From positions 71,631 to 135,630 of the forward strand of contig DIWR01000024.1 in NCBI GenBank assembly GCA_002428495.1: a stretch of 64,000 bases of DNA, given 5' to 3'. The translations under genes and the position numbers were made by a program. Positions 3,719-64,000 of the stretch are shown here, piece after piece (position 1 is the first letter of the stretch; every line of letters starts with the position of its first letter). Source of the DNA: Synergistaceae bacterium UBA6101 (GTDB taxonomy: Bacteria > Synergistota > Synergistia > Synergistales > Synergistaceae). The notes beneath the pieces are model-generated. The model did not search any database. It was given only the letters and a program-made list of their open reading frames with translations, and was not told where the DNA came from.

Positions 3719-3746
3719 ATTCTACATTATATCTCCAGTTTGTCAA
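3719..3746 (-). promoter_or_regulatory. sigma70-like promoter for the tRNA-Tyr/Thr unit
   Basis: Minus strand reads TTGACA (3746-3741), N16, TAGAAT (3724-3719), about 35 nt upstream of the tRNA-Tyr 5' end. Confidence 0.5.
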
Positions 3747-4012
3747 GCCAGCACTTGGGGCAGCTGCACTCGGGCCAGCCAGCACTTGGGCGAAAATGTC
3801 CCGCTTTCTGACTGCGCTTAAATAGCGTCCTGTGCCGCTAGATGTGATGTTTATGCCTGTGTAATAAAGATATCTGTTTATGAAGAATTAAAACAATCCC
3901 TGTCTCTTATGATAGAATATGCGCACATGATGCCGGCACGAGAATGGACACTAATATATAACAGTTCCTGTTTTTGAAGCGCAGCTCATTGATAAAAAAT
4001 GAATATCAGCGT

Positions 4013-4172
4013 CTTTTAAGGGGGAATCCGGTGCAAATCCGGAGCGGCCCCGCCACTGTTACCCTTGATGGGAAGTCAGGCGACCCGAGAAAAGATGATG
4101 GATGTTATGCGCGGGCGTTGTTCATCCTCATTGTGTAAATTTATTGAGGAAGCCGTTCGGCTTCCTTTTTTC
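4013..4172 (+). promoter_or_regulatory. cobalamin riboswitch, compact form, with terminator expression platform
   Basis: Core AAGGGGGAATCCGGTGCAAATCCGGAGCGGCCCCGCCACTGT plus B12 box GGGAAGTCAGGCGACCCG, with only about 9 nt between them. GGAAGCC-gttc-GGCTTCC plus a T-run at 4148-4171, upstream of the btuF-like gene. Confidence 0.8.
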
Positions 4173-4201
4173 GTTGCCATACATAGAAAAGAGGTATTTC
4201 C

Positions 4202-5098
4202 TTGAAGAGGTCAAAGCTTTTTTTGTCCATAGTTTTTATAATGCTGATATTGCCGCCTGCAGCCTGGGCTTCTCCCAAAAAGATAATCTCGATGACTCCT
4301 GTCGGAACGGAGATCCTCTTTGCTCTTGGGCAGGGAGACAATATAATCGGCGTGACAAATTTCTGCGATTATCCTCCAGAAGCTACGAAAAAGCCTAAGA
4401 TGGGGGATTTTGCAGCCTTAAACTTTGAGATGCTGATGTCTATGAAGACCGACCTGCTCCTTCTTCAGGACATGCATATGCAGTTTACCCCTCAGCTGGA
4501 CAGGCTTAAGATACCCTACATCGTCATGAAACAGAACACCATAGATGAGGTATGCGATTCCATAACCAGGCTTGGAAAGATATGCTCGGCACAGGCCAAG
4601 GCGCAAAAACTGGTCTCCGGGATACGTGCGGACGTAAAACTGGTGACGTCAAAAGTCAAGGGGCTGGATAAGCCCAAAGTCCTTCTCTGCGTATCAAGGG
4701 AGCTTTCCGAGCACCAGATCAACAGCTTTTACGTTGCGGGCAACAACAATTTCTACGGAGAGATGATCGCGCTGGCAGGAGGAGAAAATGCTGTAACAGA
4801 GAAAAAAATATCCTACCCGCAGGTCTCGCTTGAAGGGCTGATGACAATAAACCCGAACGTGATCATAGACCTTGTCGGAGACAAGACTTTCTATCATTCA
4901 AAAGACAAAATAGATGTGGATACGATCTTCAATGAAAAATACCTTAAGGGCCAGTGGCAGAGAAGCGCCAAGGTCGACGCGGTCAACAAGGGAAGGATAT
5001 ACATAATGCAGGGTACTGTCTATCTCAGGCCGGGCGCCAGGTCTGGCATGATATTGAAGGCATTCGCAAAAGCGATACATCCGGAGGTCAAATGGTGA
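4202..5098 (+). CDS. ABC transporter periplasmic binding protein, BtuF/FhuD-type (corrinoid or iron-chelate)
   Basis: TTG start after an AGAGG SD, with a signal peptide. IISMTPVGTEILFALGQGDNIIGVTNFCDYP resembles BtuF-like binding proteins. Lies downstream of a B12 riboswitch. Confidence 0.8.
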   Translation: MKRSKLFLSIVFIMLILPPAAWASPKKIISMTPVGTEILFALGQGDNIIGVTNFCDYPPEATKKPKMGDFAALNFEMLMSMKTDLLLLQDMHMQFTPQLDRLKIPYIVMKQNTIDEVCDSITRLGKICSAQAKAQKLVSGIRADVKLVTSKVKGLDKPKVLLCVSRELSEHQINSFYVAGNNNFYGEMIALAGGENAVTEKKISYPQVSLEGLMTINPNVIIDLVGDKTFYHSKDKIDVDTIFNEKYLKGQWQRSAKVDAVNKGRIYIMQGTVYLRPGARSGMILKAFAKAIHPEVKW

Positions 5099-8602: not shown

Positions 8603-8862
8603 GCAGGACGCGGTCCTGCCGGGGAGTCTATTGGGAATCGTTGGGAATCAATTGCAAATCGGTAGTTTAAAAATCGTGACTGAGCAATTGCTAAGATTTT
8701 AGAGCATGTCAAACGATCGTTAAAATTAAGGTACTTCTTCTTAACCGTCGTCCCCGGACGATCCTTAACGGGGGCCCAGTGTCTTCGGTTCAAGTCTATC
8801 ACCGGCTTTAGGGCCAATACCCAAGCCGCTGGGCCCCCGATGAGAGCATTCGAGGGTGACGG
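8603..8862 (+). repeat. composite intergenic repeat, copy A (11-nt array plus hairpin block)
   Basis: GCAGGAC-gcg-GTCCTGC hairpin, then units ATTGGGAATCG TTGGGAATCAA TTGCAAATCGG ..., hairpin CCCCG(8752-8756)/CGGGG(8769-8773), and a tail CTGGGCCCCCGAT..GCATTCGAGGGTGACGG alignable to copies at 60433-61024 and 62845-63216. Confidence 0.6.
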
Positions 8863-8901
8863 GGCGGGGCCAGGATCAAATGCAAGAATGGTGGATATTT
8901 T

Positions 8902-9814: not shown

Positions 9815-10100
9815 GTGACAATAAAATAACGTCATTGGGAGTTCAGTCAAGGGAATCCGGTCAGATGCCGGAGCAGCCCCGCTACTGTGACCGCGACGAA
9901 ACCGTATTAAGCCACTGTCTGAGGATGGGAAGGCACGGGAGTAGGATGAACGGGAGCCAGGAGACCTGCTGAAAAACCGGATTGTTGATCATCGCGCGGG
10001 CGAAAGGCGGCAAACTGTATCCTGACAGGCATACCTGCCTGAGGATACGAAATATGTTTGTCACAGAGGGACCCCCGATATCAGGAGGTCCCTCTTTTTT
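9815..10100 (+). promoter_or_regulatory. cobalamin riboswitch, long canonical form, with terminator
   Basis: AAGGGAATCCGGTCAGATGCCGGAGCAGCCCCGCTACTGT, a peripheral segment with GCCACTG...GGGAAGGC, and B12 box GGGAGCCAGGAGACCTGC. Terminator AGAGGGACC...GGTCCCTCT plus a T-run at 10065-10100. TTGACA at 9783-9788 upstream. Confidence 0.85.
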
Positions 10101-49183: not shown

Positions 49184-49654
49184 TTAATGGGATTTTGATT
49201 CTATCTTTTTTTTATTGCAGCTGCACTGTGGTATCCTGCAAATATTCGCTGACTGGTCGACGAGATCCTGAAAGGTGGTCCCGTCATAAACGCTTTCAAG
49301 TGCTGCCCTTGCTTTGTCCCAGAGAGGCCTGAAGACGCAGTCGCTGTAAAAATCGCAGTCGTCATCGACTCGGCTCGTACATTCAACGGGTCCTATGGGA
49401 CCCTGAACGAACCTTATCACTTCTCCGACAGTTATGCTGTCTGCCGGCTTAAGAAGATAATATCCGCCCTCTTTACCTCTCGCGGAATCGACAATGTCCG
49501 CACCTTTTAGGCTGTTGAGGATATTTTCAAGGAAACGGACCGGTATAGACTGTGCTTCGGCAATGGCCCCTATCTTGCAGGGACCCTCGTCCTGATGAAG
49601 CGCCAGCTCATATATTGCCCTAAGAGCGTATTGACATTTTTGTGAAATCGCCAT
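49184..49654 (-). CDS. Rrf2 family transcriptional regulator (IscR-like)
   Basis: MAISQKCQYALRAIYELAL HTH and Cys residues (C..C.....C) for a cluster ligand set. ATG 49654 after a GGTGAGGA SD. Confidence 0.85.
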   Translation of the reverse strand: MAISQKCQYALRAIYELALHQDEGPCKIGAIAEAQSIPVRFLENILNSLKGADIVDSARGKEGGYYLLKPADSITVGEVIRFVQGPIGPVECTSRVDDDCDFYSDCVFRPLWDKARAALESVYDGTTFQDLVDQSANICRIPQCSCNKKKIESKSH

Positions 49655-49733
49655 AATCCTCACCATCCCTACCAAGCTAGTGAAGATTACTATTATTTGT
49701 CCATGTTGTCAATACATAAAATACGTAAGATAT

Positions 49734-50040
49734 CGCGGAGAAGCTTCCGCGGGAGTCAGTTGGAAATCGGTTGCAAATCTGTGGGGAATCAGTTGGAAAG
49801 ACGGTCGCGAGAGGCTTCTGCGGGTAATTTGCAGCTTTTCAAGCTGCGGAGAATTGGTGATCAAACAAAAACGGGGAATCAAGATTCCCATCGTTCCCGA
49901 GCGTTTCAATCGGGAATCCGGGGATTGGGTATAATGTCTTGTAAACGCAGAAATAGCCTAAAACTCGAGACGCCGGGCCCCGGCTCACCGGCGTTTATCA
50001 TCGGGTTCAGCGGGTGAGCCGTTCTGGTCTGCCGGTTTTT
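49734..50040 (+). repeat. composite intergenic repeat, copy B (compact full copy)
   Basis: Contains hairpin CGCGGA..TCCGCG, 11-nt units TTGGAAATCGG TTGCAAATCTG TGGGGAATCAG TTGGAAAGACGG, hairpins CAGCTT-ttc-AAGCTG, GGGAATC-aa-GATTCCC and TTCCCGA-gcgtttcaa-TCGGGAA, block CTTGTAAACGCAGAAATAGCCTAAAAC, a terminal long hairpin and a T-run. Confidence 0.6.
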
Positions 50041-50133
50041 GTAAACCGTTTTCCCTCGTTTACCGCCTTGTCGAGATCTTTCTGTATGATCTTGCGATCC
50101 GATCCCTCCTCGTCGGAGGAGCCCCGGACCTAA

Positions 50134-51438
50134 CTAGAAACCTGTCTCATCGGGCGAACTGAAAAGCTGTTCATAGCTTCCGGGTATTATGAGTTTTTTT
50201 CTCAGCTGTATTTTGGGCATGCCCAGGACTACTATGCCCGAACTTGGGTCCAGATGATAATTCTTTGCGTCCTCGACAGGATCGAAGCCGATAGAGGTCC
50301 CCGGCTGGATAATGTTGTGCGCGTCGACTATTACCCTGCGCAGCCTGCAGTTCTCCCCGACCTCAACGTTCTGGCCAATTATGCATTCTTCAACCACAGC
50401 GCCGGGTTTTATGACGCAATTCCTGGAGAGTACGCTTTTTCGGACATATGCTCCGAGGACACGGCTCGCTTCTGCCCTGAGGCATCCGTCAACAGAACAG
50501 GAATGGTCTGCTGCGGGGTAGGTGAATCCCGGAGGGTCTGAAAAAGAGACAGTCCTTATCGGCCACTGCTGGTTGAAAAGGCTAAGCTCGGAGGGATGCT
50601 TGAGAAGGTCCATCTGGGCTTCCCAATAGGCCTTTATGCTTCCCACGTCTTTCCAGTAGGGCCTGTCTCCTCCGGGGAGCACGTTGGTGGAGAAATCATA
50701 GGCCATTACTTTTTGTTTTTTGTATAAGGATGGGATAATGTCCCTGCCGAAATCGTGGGAGCTCTCTTTTATTTCATTGTCTGAAAGAACAGATTCTTCC
50801 AGCATCTCACGTTCAAAAATGTAGTTTCCCATCGAAACGAAACTGAAGCCTGGCCTTCCGGGGATCTCAGGAGGTACGGCCGGTTTTTCTATGAAGTCGA
50901 TTATACGTCCTGTCTCATCTGTTGCTATGCAGCCGAACTGGTTCGCTTCAGAGGACGGGACCACATATGCGGAAACAGTTACATCCGCATTGTTGTCCAT
51001 GTGATACTGAAGCATCTGTTCGATGTCCATCTTATAGACATGGTCGGCCGCAAAAATGCATATCCTGTCTGCGTTGAAGAGGGTCACCAGATGGAGGTTC
51101 TGAAATATCGCATCAGCAGTTCCCTCGTACCAGCGTTCTCCGTCCCACATCTGGGCAGGCACGACATTGACGAAAAAGTCACGGCCGCGGAGGGCGCTTC
51201 CAAACTGCCATCCCTTTCCAATATGCTCATGGAGAGACTGGCTTTTGAACTGTATCATGCAGTAAATTGAAAAAAGGCCGCTGTTGACCATGTTGGAAAG
51301 CGCAAAATCTATGATCCTGTACTTTGCTGCGAACGGGACAGCGGGTTTAGCCCTGTATTTTGTAAGCGGCATCAGCCGTTCGCCCTTACCACCCGCCAGT
51401 ACCATGCCCAGGACACGGCCGTACTTGCCATGGATCAT
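50134..51438 (-). CDS. glgC: glucose-1-phosphate adenylyltransferase
   Basis: LAGGKGERLMPLT nucleotide-binding motif, FAAKYRIIDFALSN and a left-handed beta-helix C-domain. Confidence 0.9.
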   Translation of the reverse strand: MIHGKYGRVLGMVLAGGKGERLMPLTKYRAKPAVPFAAKYRIIDFALSNMVNSGLFSIYCMIQFKSQSLHEHIGKGWQFGSALRGRDFFVNVVPAQMWDGERWYEGTADAIFQNLHLVTLFNADRICIFAADHVYKMDIEQMLQYHMDNNADVTVSAYVVPSSEANQFGCIATDETGRIIDFIEKPAVPPEIPGRPGFSFVSMGNYIFEREMLEESVLSDNEIKESSHDFGRDIIPSLYKKQKVMAYDFSTNVLPGGDRPYWKDVGSIKAYWEAQMDLLKHPSELSLFNQQWPIRTVSFSDPPGFTYPAADHSCSVDGCLRAEASRVLGAYVRKSVLSRNCVIKPGAVVEECIIGQNVEVGENCRLRRVIVDAHNIIQPGTSIGFDPVEDAKNYHLDPSSGIVVLGMPKIQLRKKLIIPGSYEQLFSSPDETGF

Positions 51439-56504: not shown

Positions 56505-56695
56505 TGATTATACTATGATAAGAGGCAATTGCCACTGATGCCAAAAGCCTGATGATGCCTGTCCGTACTGGTACCCTTGTTTTTTTTATTCTTAAAGCTA
56601 TAATTGAGCTGTAATCTAAAATCGACCCTGCGGAGTACGTGGAATACGGGTTGTGTCTTGAGCCAACAATAAATCCCGGCTGAACTTTTTTCCCG
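56505..56695 (+). repeat. composite intergenic repeat, partial copy E
   Basis: TAAGAGGCAATTGCCACT aligns to 60552-60568. TTCTTAAAGCTATAATTGAGCTGTAATCTAAAATC ... CAACAATAAATCCCGGCTGAAC aligns to 60946-61010. No 11-nt array or central hairpin is present. Confidence 0.4.
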
Positions 56696-60333: not shown

Positions 60334-60419
60334 GCCGGGATGGCGGAATGGCAGACGCAGAGGACTCAAAATCCTCCGAGGTAACACTCGTGGGGGTTCG
60401 ACCCCCCCTCCCGGCACCA
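60334..60419 (+). tRNA. tRNA-Leu (anticodon CAA)
   Basis: 86 nt with GCCGGGA acceptor, anticodon loop CTCAAAA, long variable arm, GGTTCGACCCC T-arm and encoded CCA. Confidence 0.93.
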
Positions 60420-60432
60420 GATATAAATGCGT

Positions 60433-61024
60433 CTAAGCAATCGCTGAGCAGTAGCTGAGCAATAGTTAAGCGGTCGTAAAGGCGGGCGGAGTCAGCTTCC
60501 ACGGAAGTCGATCGTGGTTGCAAATCTATTGCGAATCGGTTGGATAGAACCTAAGAATATTGCCACTATTTTTCCCCAAACAAAAGAACAGGATCCGAAA
60601 GCCGAAGCTTTAGCGGATCCTGTCGACGAGATCGGTTACGGAAAACCGCAACTGTCTCAATGCTACATATTATACCGACTCTGTCTTTTTTTATCAAGTG
60701 GGCAATTGCGATTTTGATGACTATTAAGGGGCTGTGGCTTTTCAAGCTACGGGGAATTTACGAGAAAAACACTCGTGGGGAATTTGCTGAATGGACTATT
60801 CAACGGTGAATTAGGTCATAAAGCTTGAATTTTTTGCCTGTTGGTAATACCGGCAGATTCCTGCGTCGTCATCACTAGCTCTAAATCCCAATTGTGCACT
60901 CTCCTTCGTCCCCGAGTGCTTAAATCGGGGATCCGAGCGGCTTCTGTCTTAGAGGCTATAAATACAGTAATAATCTAAAACCACAAACAATGGATCCCGG
61001 CTCGAACGCATATTGGGATGACGG
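60433..61024 (+). repeat. composite intergenic repeat, expanded copy C
   Basis: About 12 degenerate 11-nt units (TAAGCAATCGC TGAGCAGTAGC TGAGCAATAGT ... TTGCGAATCGG TTGGATAGAACC), then an inserted segment with a 10-bp stem at 60588-60623, GGCTTTTCAAGCT, hairpin TCCCCGA-gtgcttaaa-TCGGGGA (60909-60931), and the block ..GCTATAAATACAGTAATAATCTAAAACC..GGATCCCGGCTCGAACGCATATTGGGATGACGG. Confidence 0.6.
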
Positions 61025-61213
61025 AGAAAGCCCAGGGCTCATAGGTTTTAACCATCGCTTGCCAGTACATTTCCTGCCCCCACAACCTCTTTCCGCCGGA
61101 GGCTCTTATCGGAGATGGAATCGCCACTTCGCGCGGCATTTTTACGACGCACTTCCTCCATAGGTTTATAATGTATCTGTATGGGGGTGACGGGGATTTT
61201 TGAGGAACTGAGG

Positions 61214-62035
61214 ATGGATATTGATGCGGGAGATAAGCTTGATGTTCTGGAGAAGTTCCAGAACCTTATTCTGTTGGGGCTTTCTGTCCATACAGATTTT
61301 TTCAAGCATGCCGCAATGTTCGGAGGGACAGCGCTTCGGATATTCCATAATTTGCCAAGATTTTCCGAAGACCTTGATTTCACTCTGGTATCACACGGTG
61401 CTGATTTTTCCCTTGCTTCCTACAGGGAACCGATGTCCCGTTTTTTTGCGGATATGGGTCTTGATGATGTGAAGATAAACATAAAGGAAGAGGGAGAAAA
61501 TGTTTTAAGAGGAAGCTTTGTTCTTTCAATTAAGAGATCTGAAAGCCTGAGAGTAATAATAGACGTCGAGAAGCCATCGACCGATGTCATGCCCCGAACT
61601 GAAACCCTGTACGGCTCCTATCCCTATAATTACTCTGCACGTTTATGCACCCTGTCCTCGTCCTTCGCGGGAAAAATGGACGCGATAATACATCGCAAGT
61701 GGGGAAACAAGCGAGTCAAGGGCCGCGACTGGTACGATCTCCTCTGGTACATGAGGAAGGATACGGAACTCGATATATATTGGCTAGAGGCGCGCCTGAA
61801 GGAGAAGGGTACCCTTGATCCTGACAAGAAACTGACGCCCGAACTTCTGGGAGAGATGTATGAAAAGAGGGCTGCGTTGGTCAATGTCAGCGAGATACTG
61901 CGCGATGTGCAGGTCTTCATGACGGAAGCGCTTGAAAAGAAGAGCTCGCTTTCGTGGACTCCCGAACTCTTTCTCCTCCAAAAAGACAAACTTGTCGACT
62001 CTGCGAGAAGGTACGTCCTTTCACACAGATCCTGA
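61214..62035 (+). CDS. AbiEii/AbiGii-family nucleotidyltransferase toxin (DUF1814)
   Basis: FGGTALRIFHNLPRFSEDLDF signature and the later GKMDAIIHR..GRDWYDL motif. Start at ATG 61214 after GAGGAACTGAGG. TATAAT at 61167-61172. Confidence 0.8.
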   Translation: MDIDAGDKLDVLEKFQNLILLGLSVHTDFFKHAAMFGGTALRIFHNLPRFSEDLDFTLVSHGADFSLASYREPMSRFFADMGLDDVKINIKEEGENVLRGSFVLSIKRSESLRVIIDVEKPSTDVMPRTETLYGSYPYNYSARLCTLSSSFAGKMDAIIHRKWGNKRVKGRDWYDLLWYMRKDTELDIYWLEARLKEKGTLDPDKKLTPELLGEMYEKRAALVNVSEILRDVQVFMTEALEKKSSLSWTPELFLLQKDKLVDSARRYVLSHRS

Positions 62036-62160
62036 CCAAGGCCTTGATTTTTGATCCATGGAAAATACTGCGCTTGAATATATGTTTTATGTATAGTAAA
62101 CTCTAATAACTAGATGTTATTATGCATAAATTAGAATATATATAGGCGAGGTGATGTAGC

Positions 62161-62808
62161 ATGACCGATATTGAGCTGCTCAAGGGACTGGATACAGAGA
62201 TCCCCGGCTGGGTACTGCAGAGCAGGCTGAGCGAGAGGGGCTACACAAATATATGGCAGAAGATAGAGGGGCTTGTCGCAGACGGCTGCATCGAAAGGAT
62301 AATGCGGGGCTGGTACTGCCTTGGTCCCCTTCTGCGAAAGAGGGAGCCCTCCCTTAAGCACCTTGCATGCAATGTTTACGGTCCCGCCGCAGTCTCGGGA
62401 AACCTCGTCCTCTTTGAAGCGGGACTGATACCAGATGCCGTTGCTTGTGTCACAGCGGTCACGCCAAAGAGAAGCCGAAACCTGAAGACACCCTACGGGA
62501 ATATCCAATGGCTTACAGTTCCCAGGTCGTCGGTATTCCCCGGCACATACGCCGTAAAAGACCCCCCGGGATACATAAGGGCTACAACCGAAAAGGCACT
62601 GCTGGACCAGCTCTACATCATCAGGTACACTCCGCAGAGCTATCGTCTCTGGAAGGATTTCATCCTTGAAGACCTCAGGATCGACGACGAGGCTTTAGAA
62701 AAGCTGGACTTCACAAGCATTCAGGAGTTGGGCAGGATATATAAGTCGCCAAAGATCATAAGGCACGTAAACTGGTTTCTGAAGTATTTCGGAATTCTTA
62801 ATAAATAA
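62161..62808 (+). CDS. AbiEi-like antitoxin/transcriptional regulator (wHTH)
   Basis: 215 aa. The N-terminal wHTH-like segment ending GCIERIMRGWYCLG resembles the AbiEi G.L.R..RG.Y motif. GAGGTGA SD. Family call is moderate. Confidence 0.55.
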   Translation: MTDIELLKGLDTEIPGWVLQSRLSERGYTNIWQKIEGLVADGCIERIMRGWYCLGPLLRKREPSLKHLACNVYGPAAVSGNLVLFEAGLIPDAVACVTAVTPKRSRNLKTPYGNIQWLTVPRSSVFPGTYAVKDPPGYIRATTEKALLDQLYIIRYTPQSYRLWKDFILEDLRIDDEALEKLDFTSIQELGRIYKSPKIIRHVNWFLKYFGILNK

Positions 62809-62844
62809 CCGTTTGCCGAGTGCTTGTCTGCCTTCGCAACCTCT

Positions 62845-63216
62845 GGCCAATAAGCTGTTGCAAAGCAGTCGTAGGGCCGCCAAACAGCAGTCAAACGTCG
62901 TGTCAAACAATGGCCAAACGATAGTTACGACCTGAGAATCGCCCTCCTGCCGTCGTTCCCGTATGCACCTGATTAGGAAGGAGCTGTTCCTCGAATGAGG
63001 GACATTTCAAATCACCATAGCGACTGAACTCTATTTCGAGTGCGTTTCGAGATCGGGAATCCAGGTCTGACCTTGCTTCAAGCTTCTTATAGTTGTCCCC
63101 GAATGCATAAATCGGGGATCCAGCGTCTTCTGTTTAAGGTCTTGTAAACACAGTAAAAAACTAAAACCAGAGCCACTGGACCCCGATCTCAAAACGCATT
63201 CGAAATGGTTCGAGCA
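62845..63216 (+). repeat. composite intergenic repeat, copy D1
   Basis: Degenerate 11-13-nt units (CCAAACAGCAG TCAAACGTCGTG TCAAACAATGG CCAAACGATAG), a degenerate hairpin copy at 63034-63062, TGCTTCAAGCTT, hairpin TCCCCGA-atgcataaa-TCGGGGA (63096-63118), and the block CTTGTAAACACAGTAAAAAACTAAAACC..GGACCCCGATCTC..GCATTCGAAATGG. Confidence 0.5.
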
Positions 63217-63294
63217 CTAAGGAAAATTAAAAAAGTTTTCCTGAAGGAAAACAGCACTCTCCCGATACAGGCGCTCGAGTGAGACGGTGGGGGT

Positions 63295-63372
63295 CAAGTT
63301 CTTAGATCCTAACCAACTGATTACCAACCGATTTGCTATTGACTCCCAATCCCGGCGGATGCTCTCTCCGCC
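63295..63372 (-). repeat. composite intergenic repeat, inverted array-only copy D2
   Basis: The reverse complement reads GGCGGA-gagagca-TCCGCC hairpin, then GGGATTGGGAGTCAA TAGCAAATCGG TTGGTAATCAG TTGGTTAGGATC TAAGAAC. It starts 6 nt after the aldolase stop codon. Confidence 0.5.
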
Positions 63373-63377
63373 TTCCC

Positions 63378-64000
63378 TTACCCCTTCGCCTCTTCTATCA
63401 TCTTCTTCATGGAGTTGATGAAAGTATCCACATCGGAAGATAAACATACCGCGGTTGCCCCCATATCGAAGAACTTTTTGCAGTCAGCGGGATCAAACGT
63501 GAATGCGAACAAGAACTTCCCGGCGTCCTTACATGCCTTGTATATTCGGCTCATCGCCGCCCGGAATTCCGGTGTATCAAATTTACCCGGAGCGCCAAGG
63601 CCGACTGACAGGTCATATGGGCCGATGAAGATCCCGTCGACTCCGTCGATCCCGACCACTTCTTCGATCACCTCAAGACATTCCTTTGTTTCACACTGCG
63701 GAATAATGAGAGTCTCCCTATTGCATATATCAAAGAATCCCTGCAGATCCCCTTTATCCACCCAATCCGCATAGCCGTAACCGCACTGTCCGGCAAACGC
63801 CACACCACGTTCTCCGACCGGGAAGTATTTCCCGTACCGGACAAGCTGCCTGACTTCCTCTACGGACCGGACATCCGGAATGATCAGAGCCTGTGCGCCG
63901 ACATCCAGCATTTTTAATACCGACGGGCGCGAGCAGTCTTTGATCCTTGCGCAGCAGGTCACCTCACCCTTCTGTGCCGCACGGATCATCGACTGTACAG
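63378..64000 (-). CDS. HpcH/HpaI-family aldolase, C-terminal part (5' end outside window)
   Basis: IIPDVRS.EE, PQCETKE and GIFIGPYDLS motifs of the HpcH/HpaI (citE-like) TIM-barrel aldolases. The frame stays open to the window edge. Confidence 0.8.
   Translation of the reverse strand, partial: VQSMIRAAQKGEVTCCARIKDCSRPSVLKMLDVGAQALIIPDVRSVEEVRQLVRYGKYFPVGERGVAFAGQCGYGYADWVDKGDLQGFFDICNRETLIIPQCETKECLEVIEEVVGIDGVDGIFIGPYDLSVGLGAPGKFDTPEFRAAMSRIYKACKDAGKFLFAFTFDPADCKKFFDMGATAVCLSSDVDTFINSMKKMIEEAKG

Follow-up and report, generated by a model that had tools for sequence, protein, structure and literature searches.

A composite intergenic repeat of Synergistaceae combines CGTC-tagged REP doublets with arms of 11-nt units

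The question raised by this locus is what fills the gap between two genes of Synergistaceae bacterium UBA6101. The window analysed here is the whole 64,000-nt stretch of its contig DIWR01000024.1 (positions 71,631 to 135,630), and spacer 49676-50133 of the window is the entire gap between a glgC-like nucleotidyl-transferase gene and the gene of an Rrf2-family regulator. An earlier note had described region 49734-50040 of this spacer as one copy of a composite non-coding repeat family, in which arrays of 11-nt units accompany a conserved hairpin block, and had offered three possible roles: a non-autonomous mobile element, a small RNA (sRNA) gene family, or an array of phased protein-binding iterons. 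Every motif that it listed in the region was found at, or within 1 nt of, the position that it gave. Of the three roles, a non-autonomous element related to repetitive extragenic palindromic (REP) sequences or to miniature inverted-repeat transposable elements (MITEs) fits best.

The hairpin block was followed beyond the window by scanning a single genome for each species with the pattern GTYCCCGA-N9-TCGGGRATCC; at least 116 stretches were obtained and 123 hairpin matches were analysed. Among the matches listed, Nitrospirota accounted for 41 loci, Planctomycetota for 15, Synergistota for 13 and Betaproteobacteria for 9, with further groups (Ignavibacteria, Elusimicrobiota, Latescibacterota and others) also represented. 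At the four positions 5′ of the stem, which lie outside the search pattern, CGTC was present in 30 and TGTC in 13 of the 123 matches listed; in Nitrospirota copies TGTC is located one half-unit farther out, and 13 of 16 aligned Synergistaceae doublets carry CGTC. The base following TCC was A in 95 of the 123 matches listed, which produces a CCA tail. An inverted partner with the end ...GGGAA(C/T)GAC(G/A) was located 40-100 nt downstream in the copies that were read, and a permissive pattern detected partner units at 22 of the 123 matches listed. Partner units in other phyla begin ATTCCCGC...GCGGGAAT, as in described CGTC families, and seven have canonical short loops of 3-6 nt, for example TGTC-ATTCCCGC-GAAA-GCGGGAAT-CCA in locus L094.

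CGTC-tagged REPs consist of an unpaired CGTC or TGTC tag (also CCTC), a stem of about 8 bp with a 4-5-nt loop, and a CCA tail; they occur mostly as head-to-head dimers, often heterodimers, with the tags outside and 20-100 bp apart, and without a linked transposase (PMC3733652). The class includes Neisseria dRS3, which is family CGTC-1 (Di Nocera, De Gregorio and Rocco 2013, BMC Genomics 14:522; PMC3733652), and Rickettsia RPE-6 and RPE-4 belong to the same superfamily (PMC3733652). The sequences found here share the tag, a stem of about 8 bp, (A/G)TYCCCG(A/C), the CCA tail, the head-to-head arrangement and the frequent formation of heterodimers. As tag, tail and layout all match, the hairpin block belongs to this described class, and the earlier statement that it could be placed in no named REP family does not hold. 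Within the window an exact CGTC tag is present at the 8746 copy alone, the other three being CATC, CTTC and AGTT, and the tails are CCG, CCG, CCA and CCA.

Pairing was then counted for a four-helix structure on an alignment of 16 distinct doublets. In all 16, CGTC...GACG is outermost and encloses a core of about 55 nt. Paired cells amounted to 86%, compared to at most 47% when the 3′ partners were slid, and the left hairpin was 98% paired. Changes on both sides were seen at 9 pairs, as many as were obtained in only 3 of 500 shuffles. The hairpins are thus kept by compensatory substitution, with stem variants TTCCCGA/TCGGGAA, TCCCCGA/TCGGGGA, TCTCCGA/TCGGAGA and CCCCCGA/TCGGGGG among the doublets. 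The compensatory change between the first two of these, which the earlier note had pointed out within the window, is real: in the 123 matches listed from other genomes the variable pair is C-G in 84, T-A in 27, C-A in 8 and T-G in 4. It corresponds to the difference between two unit types, A (GTTCCCGA..TCGGGAAT-CCAGCGGCTT) and B (GTCCCCGA..TCGGGGAT-CCAGTGTCTT). Two mid-helix positions are mismatched in 14 and 16 of the 16 doublets, respectively, and since these mismatches are nearly constant the doublet is a heterodimer that consistently joins an A-type arm (..TCGGGAATCCAGCGGCTT) to a B-type arm (..TCGGGGATCCAGTGTCTT).

Several features distinguish this repeat from the families described. The loop is 9 nt in all window copies (a length that the search pattern itself fixed) versus 4-5 nt, and the stem has seven Watson-Crick pairs with G/T rather than A-T at position 1 (G:U in 14 of the 16 doublets); CGTC REP stems are described as 8-9 bp long, with complementary A-T pairs at the first two positions (PMC3733652). 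The long loop and the G/T position identify a long-loop variant that is not one of CGTC-1 to CGTC-4. It is found in phyla absent from PMC3733652 (Synergistota, Nitrospirota, Planctomycetota, Elusimicrobiota and others), and Synergistaceae doublets are embedded between lineage-specific arms, with three of the four window tags degenerate. REPIN/RAYT systems, in which GTAG-tagged REP doublets accompany a REP-associated tyrosine transposase (RAYT), a domesticated IS200-like enzyme, resemble it in having many non-coding copies with two inverted hairpins that can fold together into one long hairpin; they differ in the tag, which is CGTC/TGTC here, and no RAYT-like gene was seen beside copies in the loci examined. 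A full-text literature search for the hairpin strings returned primer noise alone, no literature on Synergistetes repeats was found, and in the RepRanger and HUH-phylogenomics papers CGTC appears in reference lists alone.

Two variations on the hairpin were seen in other phyla. At Nitrospirota loci L009-L121 (for example L017, L025 and L091) the 5′ half of the REP is doubled, TGTC-ATCCTCGA-CGCTT-GTCCCCGA-loop-TCGGGGAT-CCA, and therefore one 3′ arm can pair with either 5′ arm. In Planctomycetota (L007, L028, L047, L110 and L112, from Sedimentisphaerales, Pirellulales and Phycisphaerae) the REP hairpin is followed inward by short tandem arrays of TTAACCAAA/TTAACCAAT, ATGAACT or GTATCGA, suggesting that an association of CGTC REPs with short tandem repeats may extend beyond Synergistaceae.

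In the window, each doublet is accompanied by an "arm", which at 49734-50040 consists of an outer hairpin, the motif GGGAGTC and four 11-nt units (49760-49804). Two profile hidden Markov models (HMMs) for nhmmer were built from sequences outside the window, one from 17 doublets, all from other Synergistaceae loci, and one from 27 arms on metagenome contigs. The doublet HMM detected four doublets, each on both strands because the doublet is a palindrome, and the arm HMM detected exactly four arms, each less than 400 nt from a doublet in the same spacer and aimed at it (Table 1); array and hairpin block thus occur together at 4 of 4 sites. The strict hairpin pattern was present 3 times, compared to 0.29 expected from Markov shuffles. 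A dispersed-repeat search of the window yielded three families, D1 (the shared core), D2 (the 11-nt arrays) and D3 (the hairpin), and Tandem Repeats Finder (TRF) reported period-11 arrays at 8622-8661, 49759-49779, 60436-60465 and 63312-63333. A self-match of at least 24/33 was reached by period 11 alone, with none at periods 9, 10, 12 or 13, and in 149 kb of Synergistaceae DNA there were 26 period-11 runs, with no more than 3 at each of the other periods between 7 and 15. Independent HMMs, shuffles and the period test agree in showing a real composite family of non-coding repeats. The copies proposed by the earlier note at 8603-8862, 60433-61024 and 62845-63216, and the inverted array at 63295-63372, were recovered in the four intergenic gaps that it had named. 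Its partial copy at 56505-56695 matched neither HMM at E<=10, nor did BLAST against the other copies find anything, so that the composite sites in the window number four and not 5-6. The genes beside them encode TonB-like, AP_endonuc_2 (xylose isomerase-like) domain, glgC-like, Rrf2, AbiE and HpcH proteins.

Arms outside the window were collected from metagenomes using the pattern GGAGTC NN TDGSDAATC N1-2 TTGSDAATC, for which about 3 chance matches were estimated, and 67 loci were obtained, mostly from anaerobic digesters. In general, an arm is a GC hairpin of varying sequence followed by an invariant GGGAGTC and 3-4 units TTG-SN-AATC-RR (RRTTG-SNAATC), and the consensus of 48 dereplicated arms is gcGGGAGTCagTTGcaAATCgaTTGgaAATCAaTTG; GGGAGTC is itself the first unit. 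RNAalifold on the arm alignment returned 4 pairs only, as variable loops misalign, and per-sequence folds were used instead. By this measure 62% of arm hairpins fold at <= -6 kcal/mol versus 26% of shuffles, and pairing is kept while the stems vary, with 22 distinct 5-nt starts among the stable hairpins (minimum free energy, MFE, <= -6) of 45 dereplicated arms. A match to the doublet HMM was present within 700 nt of 24 of 68 metagenome arms, and several further arms were accompanied by CGTC/TGTC-tagged hairpins with other stems, recognised by eye. Inward-facing arm pairs in 69 sequences are mostly 94-552 nt apart, and about half enclose a doublet seen by the strict profile.

Further modules accompany the doublets. 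Synergistaceae doublets are flanked symmetrically by a GC hairpin of 5-6 bp with GGAGAATTTGC, repeated in tandem, and by 11-nt arrays in which the heptamer is uniform within an array and differs between arrays (GTCAAAC, GGCAAGC, GCTGAGC, GGTGAAGC), with a 4-nt spacer of approximately RRTT and the array end RGTCGTAAGG; the two sides of the doublet are reverse complements. Locus L073 has one stretch of 43 nt with 81% complementarity across 407 nt and one of 56 nt with 71%, and in both L073 and L031 the modules to the left of the doublet are inverted relative to those on its right. The composite is an imperfect palindrome of about 300-700 bp, larger than earlier described, with the A/B heterodimer at its centre, modules pointing inward and arms (3-4 units) outermost; in the window one side is usually truncated or decayed. 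In the collections scanned, the arm module was found in Synergistaceae genomes and metagenome contigs only, and the 11-nt arms appear to be undescribed. A block at L106 (3666-3917), about 135 nt long and containing a GCTGAGC-type and a GTCAAAC-type array, is duplicated in tandem, which shows that array blocks are amplified as higher-order units.

Such regularity raises the possibility that the arms are helically phased protein-binding arrays and the composite a nucleoprotein site, in which curved or wrapped DNA would flank a cruciform-prone centre. The period is specifically 11; GGGAGTC, TTG and AATC are invariant while the positions in between vary; the inverted arm pairs examined all aim inward at the doublet; and phased AAAT/AA tracts would bend DNA, as phased A-tracts do. 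By analogy with bacterial interspersed mosaic elements (BIMEs), which bind integration host factor (IHF), gyrase or DNA polymerase I, candidate binders might be nucleoid-associated or ribbon-helix-helix (ParR-like) proteins, gyrase, an IHF-like wrapping protein or a recombinase. A single sequence-specific reader is nevertheless hard to reconcile with heptamers that vary within a genome (GTCAAAC, GGCAAGC, GCTGAGC, GGTGAAGC, GSNAATC) and between orthologous arrays, and copies are numerous on the chromosome, next to genes of any kind and without a recurrent neighbour gene. We therefore regard this explanation, and with it the list of binders, as unlikely. Compared to the IHF consensus WATCAANNNNTTR, the arrays fit AATCAA and TTGS, and the TTR part is not fitted. 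The comparison with ParR-bound centromeres such as R1 parC drawn by the earlier note extends to the 11-bp period and to two clusters flanking a central region, and breaks down on orientation, copy number and gene context: the clusters here are inverted rather than direct, unit sequences vary, there are many chromosomal copies, four of them in 64 kb, and no partition gene is found among the genes flanking the window sites. In parC-type centromeres the direct iterons surround the promoter of a neighbouring parMR operon, once per replicon. A parC-type centromere was rejected on these grounds.

The anatomy of the 49734-50040 copy and of its relatives in the window is given in Table 1. At 49734-50040 the left REP unit (hairpin TTCCCGA-N9-TCGGGAA at 49894-49916, recovered both as family D3 and by the doublet HMM) is intact except for its tag, and the right unit is degenerate; nhmmer matches cover 49874-49985 on both strands, and the long GGCTCACC hairpin partially overlaps the decayed right REP arm. 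The core has a defined polarity that alignment shows to be common to other Synergistaceae doublets. Other Synergistaceae copies contain 1-4 tandem occurrences of the module of a GC hairpin and GGAGAATTGG, with equivalents in L008, L031, L060, L073, L106 and L172.

Table 1. Features of the composite repeat sites and adjoining genes in the 64,000-nt window.
Feature	Position	Strand	Evidence or remark
TonB-side arm: hairpin GCAGGAC gcg GTCCTGC, GGGGAGTC, three units	8603-8671	+	arm HMM, E 1.5e-11
Doublet HMM match	8721-8863	minus (core polarity)	E 7e-22
REP head-to-head doublet, exact CGTC tag 8746-8749, GACGG at right end	8746-8862	-	nhmmer
Rrf2-family regulator gene, first of IscS/NifU-type operon	49184-49675	minus	
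Arm HMM match	49734-49801	+	E 8.3e-17
Outer GC hairpin of arm, CGCGGA gaagct TCCGCG	49734-49751	+	read in sequence
GGGAGTC and four 11-nt units TTGGAAATCGG, TTGCAAATCTG, TGGGGAATCAG, TTGGAAAGACGG	49751-49804	+	arm HMM, TRF, autocorrelation
Module: 5-bp GC hairpin GCAGC-ttttcaa-GCTGC, then GGAGAATTGG	49831-49857	+	
Small palindrome GGGGAATCaaGATTCCC (GGGAATC-aa-GATTCCC, 49874-49889) abutting REP tag	49873-49889	+	equals GGRGNTTCAAAATCNCC in other copies
Doublet HMM match	49887-50005		E 7.6e-13
REP unit type A: degenerate tag CATC, stem GTTCCCGA, 9-nt loop, stem TCGGGAAT, tail CCG	49889-49920	+	
Core between REP units, with TATAAT (49930-49935) and CTAAAAC strings	49921-49972	+	
Inverted, degenerate partner REP unit CCGGGCCCCGG ... 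CGGGTTCAGCG, loop expanded	49973-50012	+	alignments
Hairpin GGCTCACC/GGTGAGCC	49982-50019	+	
glgC-like nucleotidyl-transferase gene	50134-51438	minus	
tRNA-Leu(CAA) gene and the islet that follows it	60334-63378		
11-nt array of other unit type (GCTGAGC/GTTAAGC + 4 nt), terminating in GGTCGTAAAGG	60431-60480	+	TRF 60436-60465
Arm: GGAGTC, short hairpin, then TTGCAAATCTA, TTGCGAATCGG, TTGGATAGAAC	60488-60550	+	arm HMM; family D2
Arm HMM match	60491-60545	+	E 1.4e-8
Doublet HMM match	60902-61048		E 6e-19
REP head-to-head doublet GTCCCCGA-N9-TCGGGGATCC ... GGATCCCG-N-GGGATGACGG	60904-61025	+	nhmmer
AbiEii gene	61181-62035		
AbiEi-like open reading frame	62161-62808		NCBIfam E 8e-8, below cut-off
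11-nt arrays, GTCAAAC/GCCAAAC type, preceded by TTGCAAAGCAGTCGTAGGG	62855-62932	+	
Cluster of four REP units	63033-63290	+	X 63033-63066, Y 63091-63124; inverted units Z 63172-63208, W 63258-63290 (degenerate)
Doublet HMM match	63089-63222		E 1.8e-20
Inverted arm: minus-strand hairpin GGCGGA..TCCGCC, GGGAGTC, units	63310-63372	-	arm HMM, E 7.5e-12

The arm at 8603-8671 begins 11 nt past the stop codon of the TonB-like gene, with orthologous arms in L147, L172 and L175, and the inverted arms of its doublet are at 8764-8789 and 8819-8844. Unit types are shared between sites: that of the array at 60431-60480, which comes directly after the tRNA-Leu gene, also occurs in L050, L051 and L106, and the GTCAAAC/GCCAAAC type of 62855-62932 in L051, L057, L073 and L106. 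In the cluster of four units, Y to Z is the doublet detected by the HMM, and a further weak match lies at 63259-63310. Units X and Z, which are inverted to each other, are 92% complementary over 25 nt and have identical stem-breaking substitutions, TTTCGA for TCCCGA, suggesting that the two sides of the palindrome were homogenised or copy-corrected and did not decay independently. A gap of 5 nt separates the end of the inverted arm at 63310-63372 from the stop codon of the HpcH-like gene.

Two further elements were recorded near these sites. A palindromic repeat of about 130 nt that is unrelated to the composite, with ends GCAATTGGGG...CCCCAATTGC and internal strings GCGCTGACTTAGCAAC / GTTGCGTCGTCATCAC, recurs in Synergistaceae spacers (window 60697-60900, L031 5517-5644, L090 and L057); in the window copy other modules are inserted between the ends. 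Cobalamin riboswitches (RF00174) are present at 3955-4106 (+, 58.5 bits) and 9827-9987 (+, 101.8 bits), the latter shortly downstream of the 8603-8862 composite and its adjacent gene.

The position of the copies relative to genes bears on whether the composite, or its arm, acts as RNA, either as a cis-acting element of 3′ untranslated regions (3′-UTRs) or intergenic sequence or as an sRNA family. The hairpins would give transcripts stability or serve in their processing, RNase III cutting of the long inverted structure being one example; such processing is known for Correia and REP elements. The hairpins covary, as described above, folding of 63025-63215 gave an MFE z-score of -6.6, and 31 of 50 arms lie shortly past a same-strand stop codon. 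Roles of REPs in RNA are also reported (PMC3733652). Against this, 19 of the 50 arms adjoin and face a gene start, and Rfam 15 returned nothing relevant at the gathering score over the whole window and only noise at E<=10 on two regions, so that the Rfam comparison suggested by the earlier note identified no family. Promoter and terminator are not conserved: a promoter scan found no sigma-70-like promoter in 49600-50200, and neither the TATAAT nor the 3′ hairpin and T-run (GGCTCACC) is present at the orthologous locus in L060 and L073. The composite is moreover a palindrome, matched by HMM on both strands, with Watson-Crick stems that pair equally well on either strand. These results do not support an sRNA gene that has a promoter and terminator of its own, and an RNA role in general seems quite unlikely. 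REP sites were in 19 convergent, 35 co-directional and 9 divergent spacers, compared to ~13, 35 and 15 expected from intergenic length; this bias toward convergent and against divergent spacers is a trend only, and the gene calls are crude.

Three further candidates touching on expression were tried and dropped. A G:U strand asymmetry of arm hairpins (p=0.03) proved to be an artefact of the Gs of GGGAGTC and of G-richness, and was gone with matched shuffles that control for composition. A sigma-54 reading of TGGC..GCT / TGG..TTGT was made by eye, and its spacing is off by 1-2 nt. A CsrA sponge does not agree with the many units that lack GGA (TTGCAAATC, TTGGTAATC), and where found GGA is outside hairpin loops.

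Comparison of orthologous loci shows how the composite evolves. Two Synergistaceae metagenome-assembled genomes (L060, JAAYHA010000156; L073, DAIRTK010000008) contain the orthologous Rrf2-upstream locus with a near-identical promoter segment and a related repeat, and the composite in this position has therefore been inherited vertically. Its array units are GGAAATC in the window versus GTGAAGC in the orthologues, and as all units are altered alike the array has undergone concerted evolution. At the locus downstream of the TonB-like gene, the outer hairpin and array have stayed the same in the window, L172 and L147 and the interior differs: L172 has four hairpin+GGAGAAT modules and a doublet, the window is without such modules, and L147 has a lone decayed REP. 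Thus the composite persists at orthologous loci across species, and its internal modules are gained, lost and homogenised. Contigs of methanogenic cultures that degrade hydrocarbons, and GCA_003452235.1, encode the exact flanking proteins. Four contigs of other assemblies that carry the DUF2703 gene (L205-L208) stop ~60-290 nt short of the tRNA-Leu composite; such early ends are what a multi-copy repeat would lead one to expect, and short-read metagenome assemblies seem to break at these composites.

No protein gene accompanies the composite from locus to locus. Clustering of open reading frames (ORFs) at the 116 or more loci, with ~8 kb per locus, returned ABC ATPases, response regulators and histidine kinases alone as recurrent families near matches, and no transposase-like family recurred among 116 loci. 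BLAST of the 49734-50040 copy against plasmids and phages gave no match, and viral contigs contained 4 matches to the hairpin pattern and 0 to the arm pattern.

The arms could alternatively be the ends of a cassette-like mobile element, with terminal inverted repeats, sub-terminal 11-bp repeats and a recombinase acting in trans; its cargo would usually be the REP doublet alone and at times a small selfish gene. Inward arm pairs enclose REP doublets in L141, L165 and L196, and at L138 (~3731-4355) a 121-aa ORF of the 23S_rRNA_IVP family (Pfam E 4e-32) lies exactly between inverted arms. This ORF also has a weak bAvd-like match, no REP doublet is present there, and similar arrangements are seen in L140, L159 and L163. 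In the window the AbiEii gene and a weak AbiEi-like partner by tRNA-Leu lie between the inward arms at 60491 and 63310-63372, and this islet could be a small selfish cassette captured in or between composites. Against such an element, there is no target-site duplication, the outer boundaries are fuzzy with more hairpin and unit modules beyond them, and no cargo contains a transposase or integrase. Neither was an empty-site allele found, and the arm pattern is absent from viral contigs, as this copy is from plasmids and phages. The enclosed gene in L178 is an ordinary PAS-GGDEF-EAL gene, suggesting that two half-composites, and not one element, lie beside it. We consider a cassette improbable. 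A MITE derived from a DDE transposon was rejected as well, since no direct repeats are present outside the outer hairpins in 11 arm pairs.

The composite is modular, non-coding and imperfectly palindromic, and taken together these data argue that it is probably a mosaic of selfish or structural DNA, which is inherited vertically while its internal modules turn over fast. It resembles the BIMEs of Escherichia coli and the neisserial intergenic mosaic elements (NIMEs) in being intergenic only and in combining REP units in alternating orientation with other short motifs in a composition that varies between copies and strains. It differs in its unrelated accessory modules (hairpin+GGAGAATTTGC; hairpin+GGGAGTC+11-nt arrays) and in the large palindrome built around one doublet. 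Streptococcus pneumoniae BOX elements (boxA-boxB(n)-boxC) are likewise modular and non-coding, with a varying number of internal tandem subunits, mutually complementary ends and no known mobilising enzyme, but are unrelated in sequence, have subunits of 45-59 bp rather than 11 nt, and contain no REP core.

For such a mosaic, units would be copied and reshuffled at the DNA level via single-strand hairpin or cruciform intermediates, with slipped-strand and template-switch events as a further route, and the arrays may evolve by concerted slippage or gene conversion. A structure-specific enzyme acting in trans is possibly involved; we know of no such enzyme for CGTC REPs. If the composite is transcribed, its nested hairpins would be barriers or 3′-end protectors, and those at 49734-50040 would part the glgC-like gene from the Rrf2-IscS-NifU operon; any host effect would be a by-product.

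Several observations weigh against a selfish mosaic. The strict 11-nt period and the invariant arm positions (GGGAGTC, TTG..AATC) look over-constrained for junk produced by slippage only, and would fit a protein-binding role. The location of 31 of 50 arms at 11-261 nt past the stop codon of a gene on the same strand, with roughly half at no more than 36 nt, is a weak trend that would also fit a 3′-UTR function. No insertion polymorphism between filled and empty sites was found, contigs with identical flanking proteins having the same content; the target-site duplications and sharp ends sought, as the earlier note had proposed, were not found in 11 arm pairs, whose boundaries run into further modules; and ORF clustering over the 116 loci identified no mobilising enzyme. 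In addition, the 9-nt loop deviates from described CGTC families, and the mechanism of spread is one that we infer.

REP-type repeats are common, and their CGTC-tagged class now includes Synergistota; the hairpin in question also brings in Nitrospirota, Planctomycetota and further phyla. New to it are the long-loop variant, the consistent A/B heterodimer, and doublets placed inside a larger organised palindrome with 11-nt phased arms; region 49734-50040 should not be catalogued as a candidate sRNA gene or centromere. It is conceivable, though very doubtful, that the arms are recognition ends of an undescribed structure- and phase-dependent DNA transaction system (a recombinase, transposase or wrapping protein). 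If so, such an enzyme would read 3-4 helically phased, half-conserved units beside a hairpin, which would explain both the installing and reshuffling of CGTC REP doublets and the occasional capture of an AbiE pair or a 23S-IVP-family ORF. The two HMMs and the short consensus provide a handle for finding the binding or mobilising protein, and for annotating or masking these repeats.

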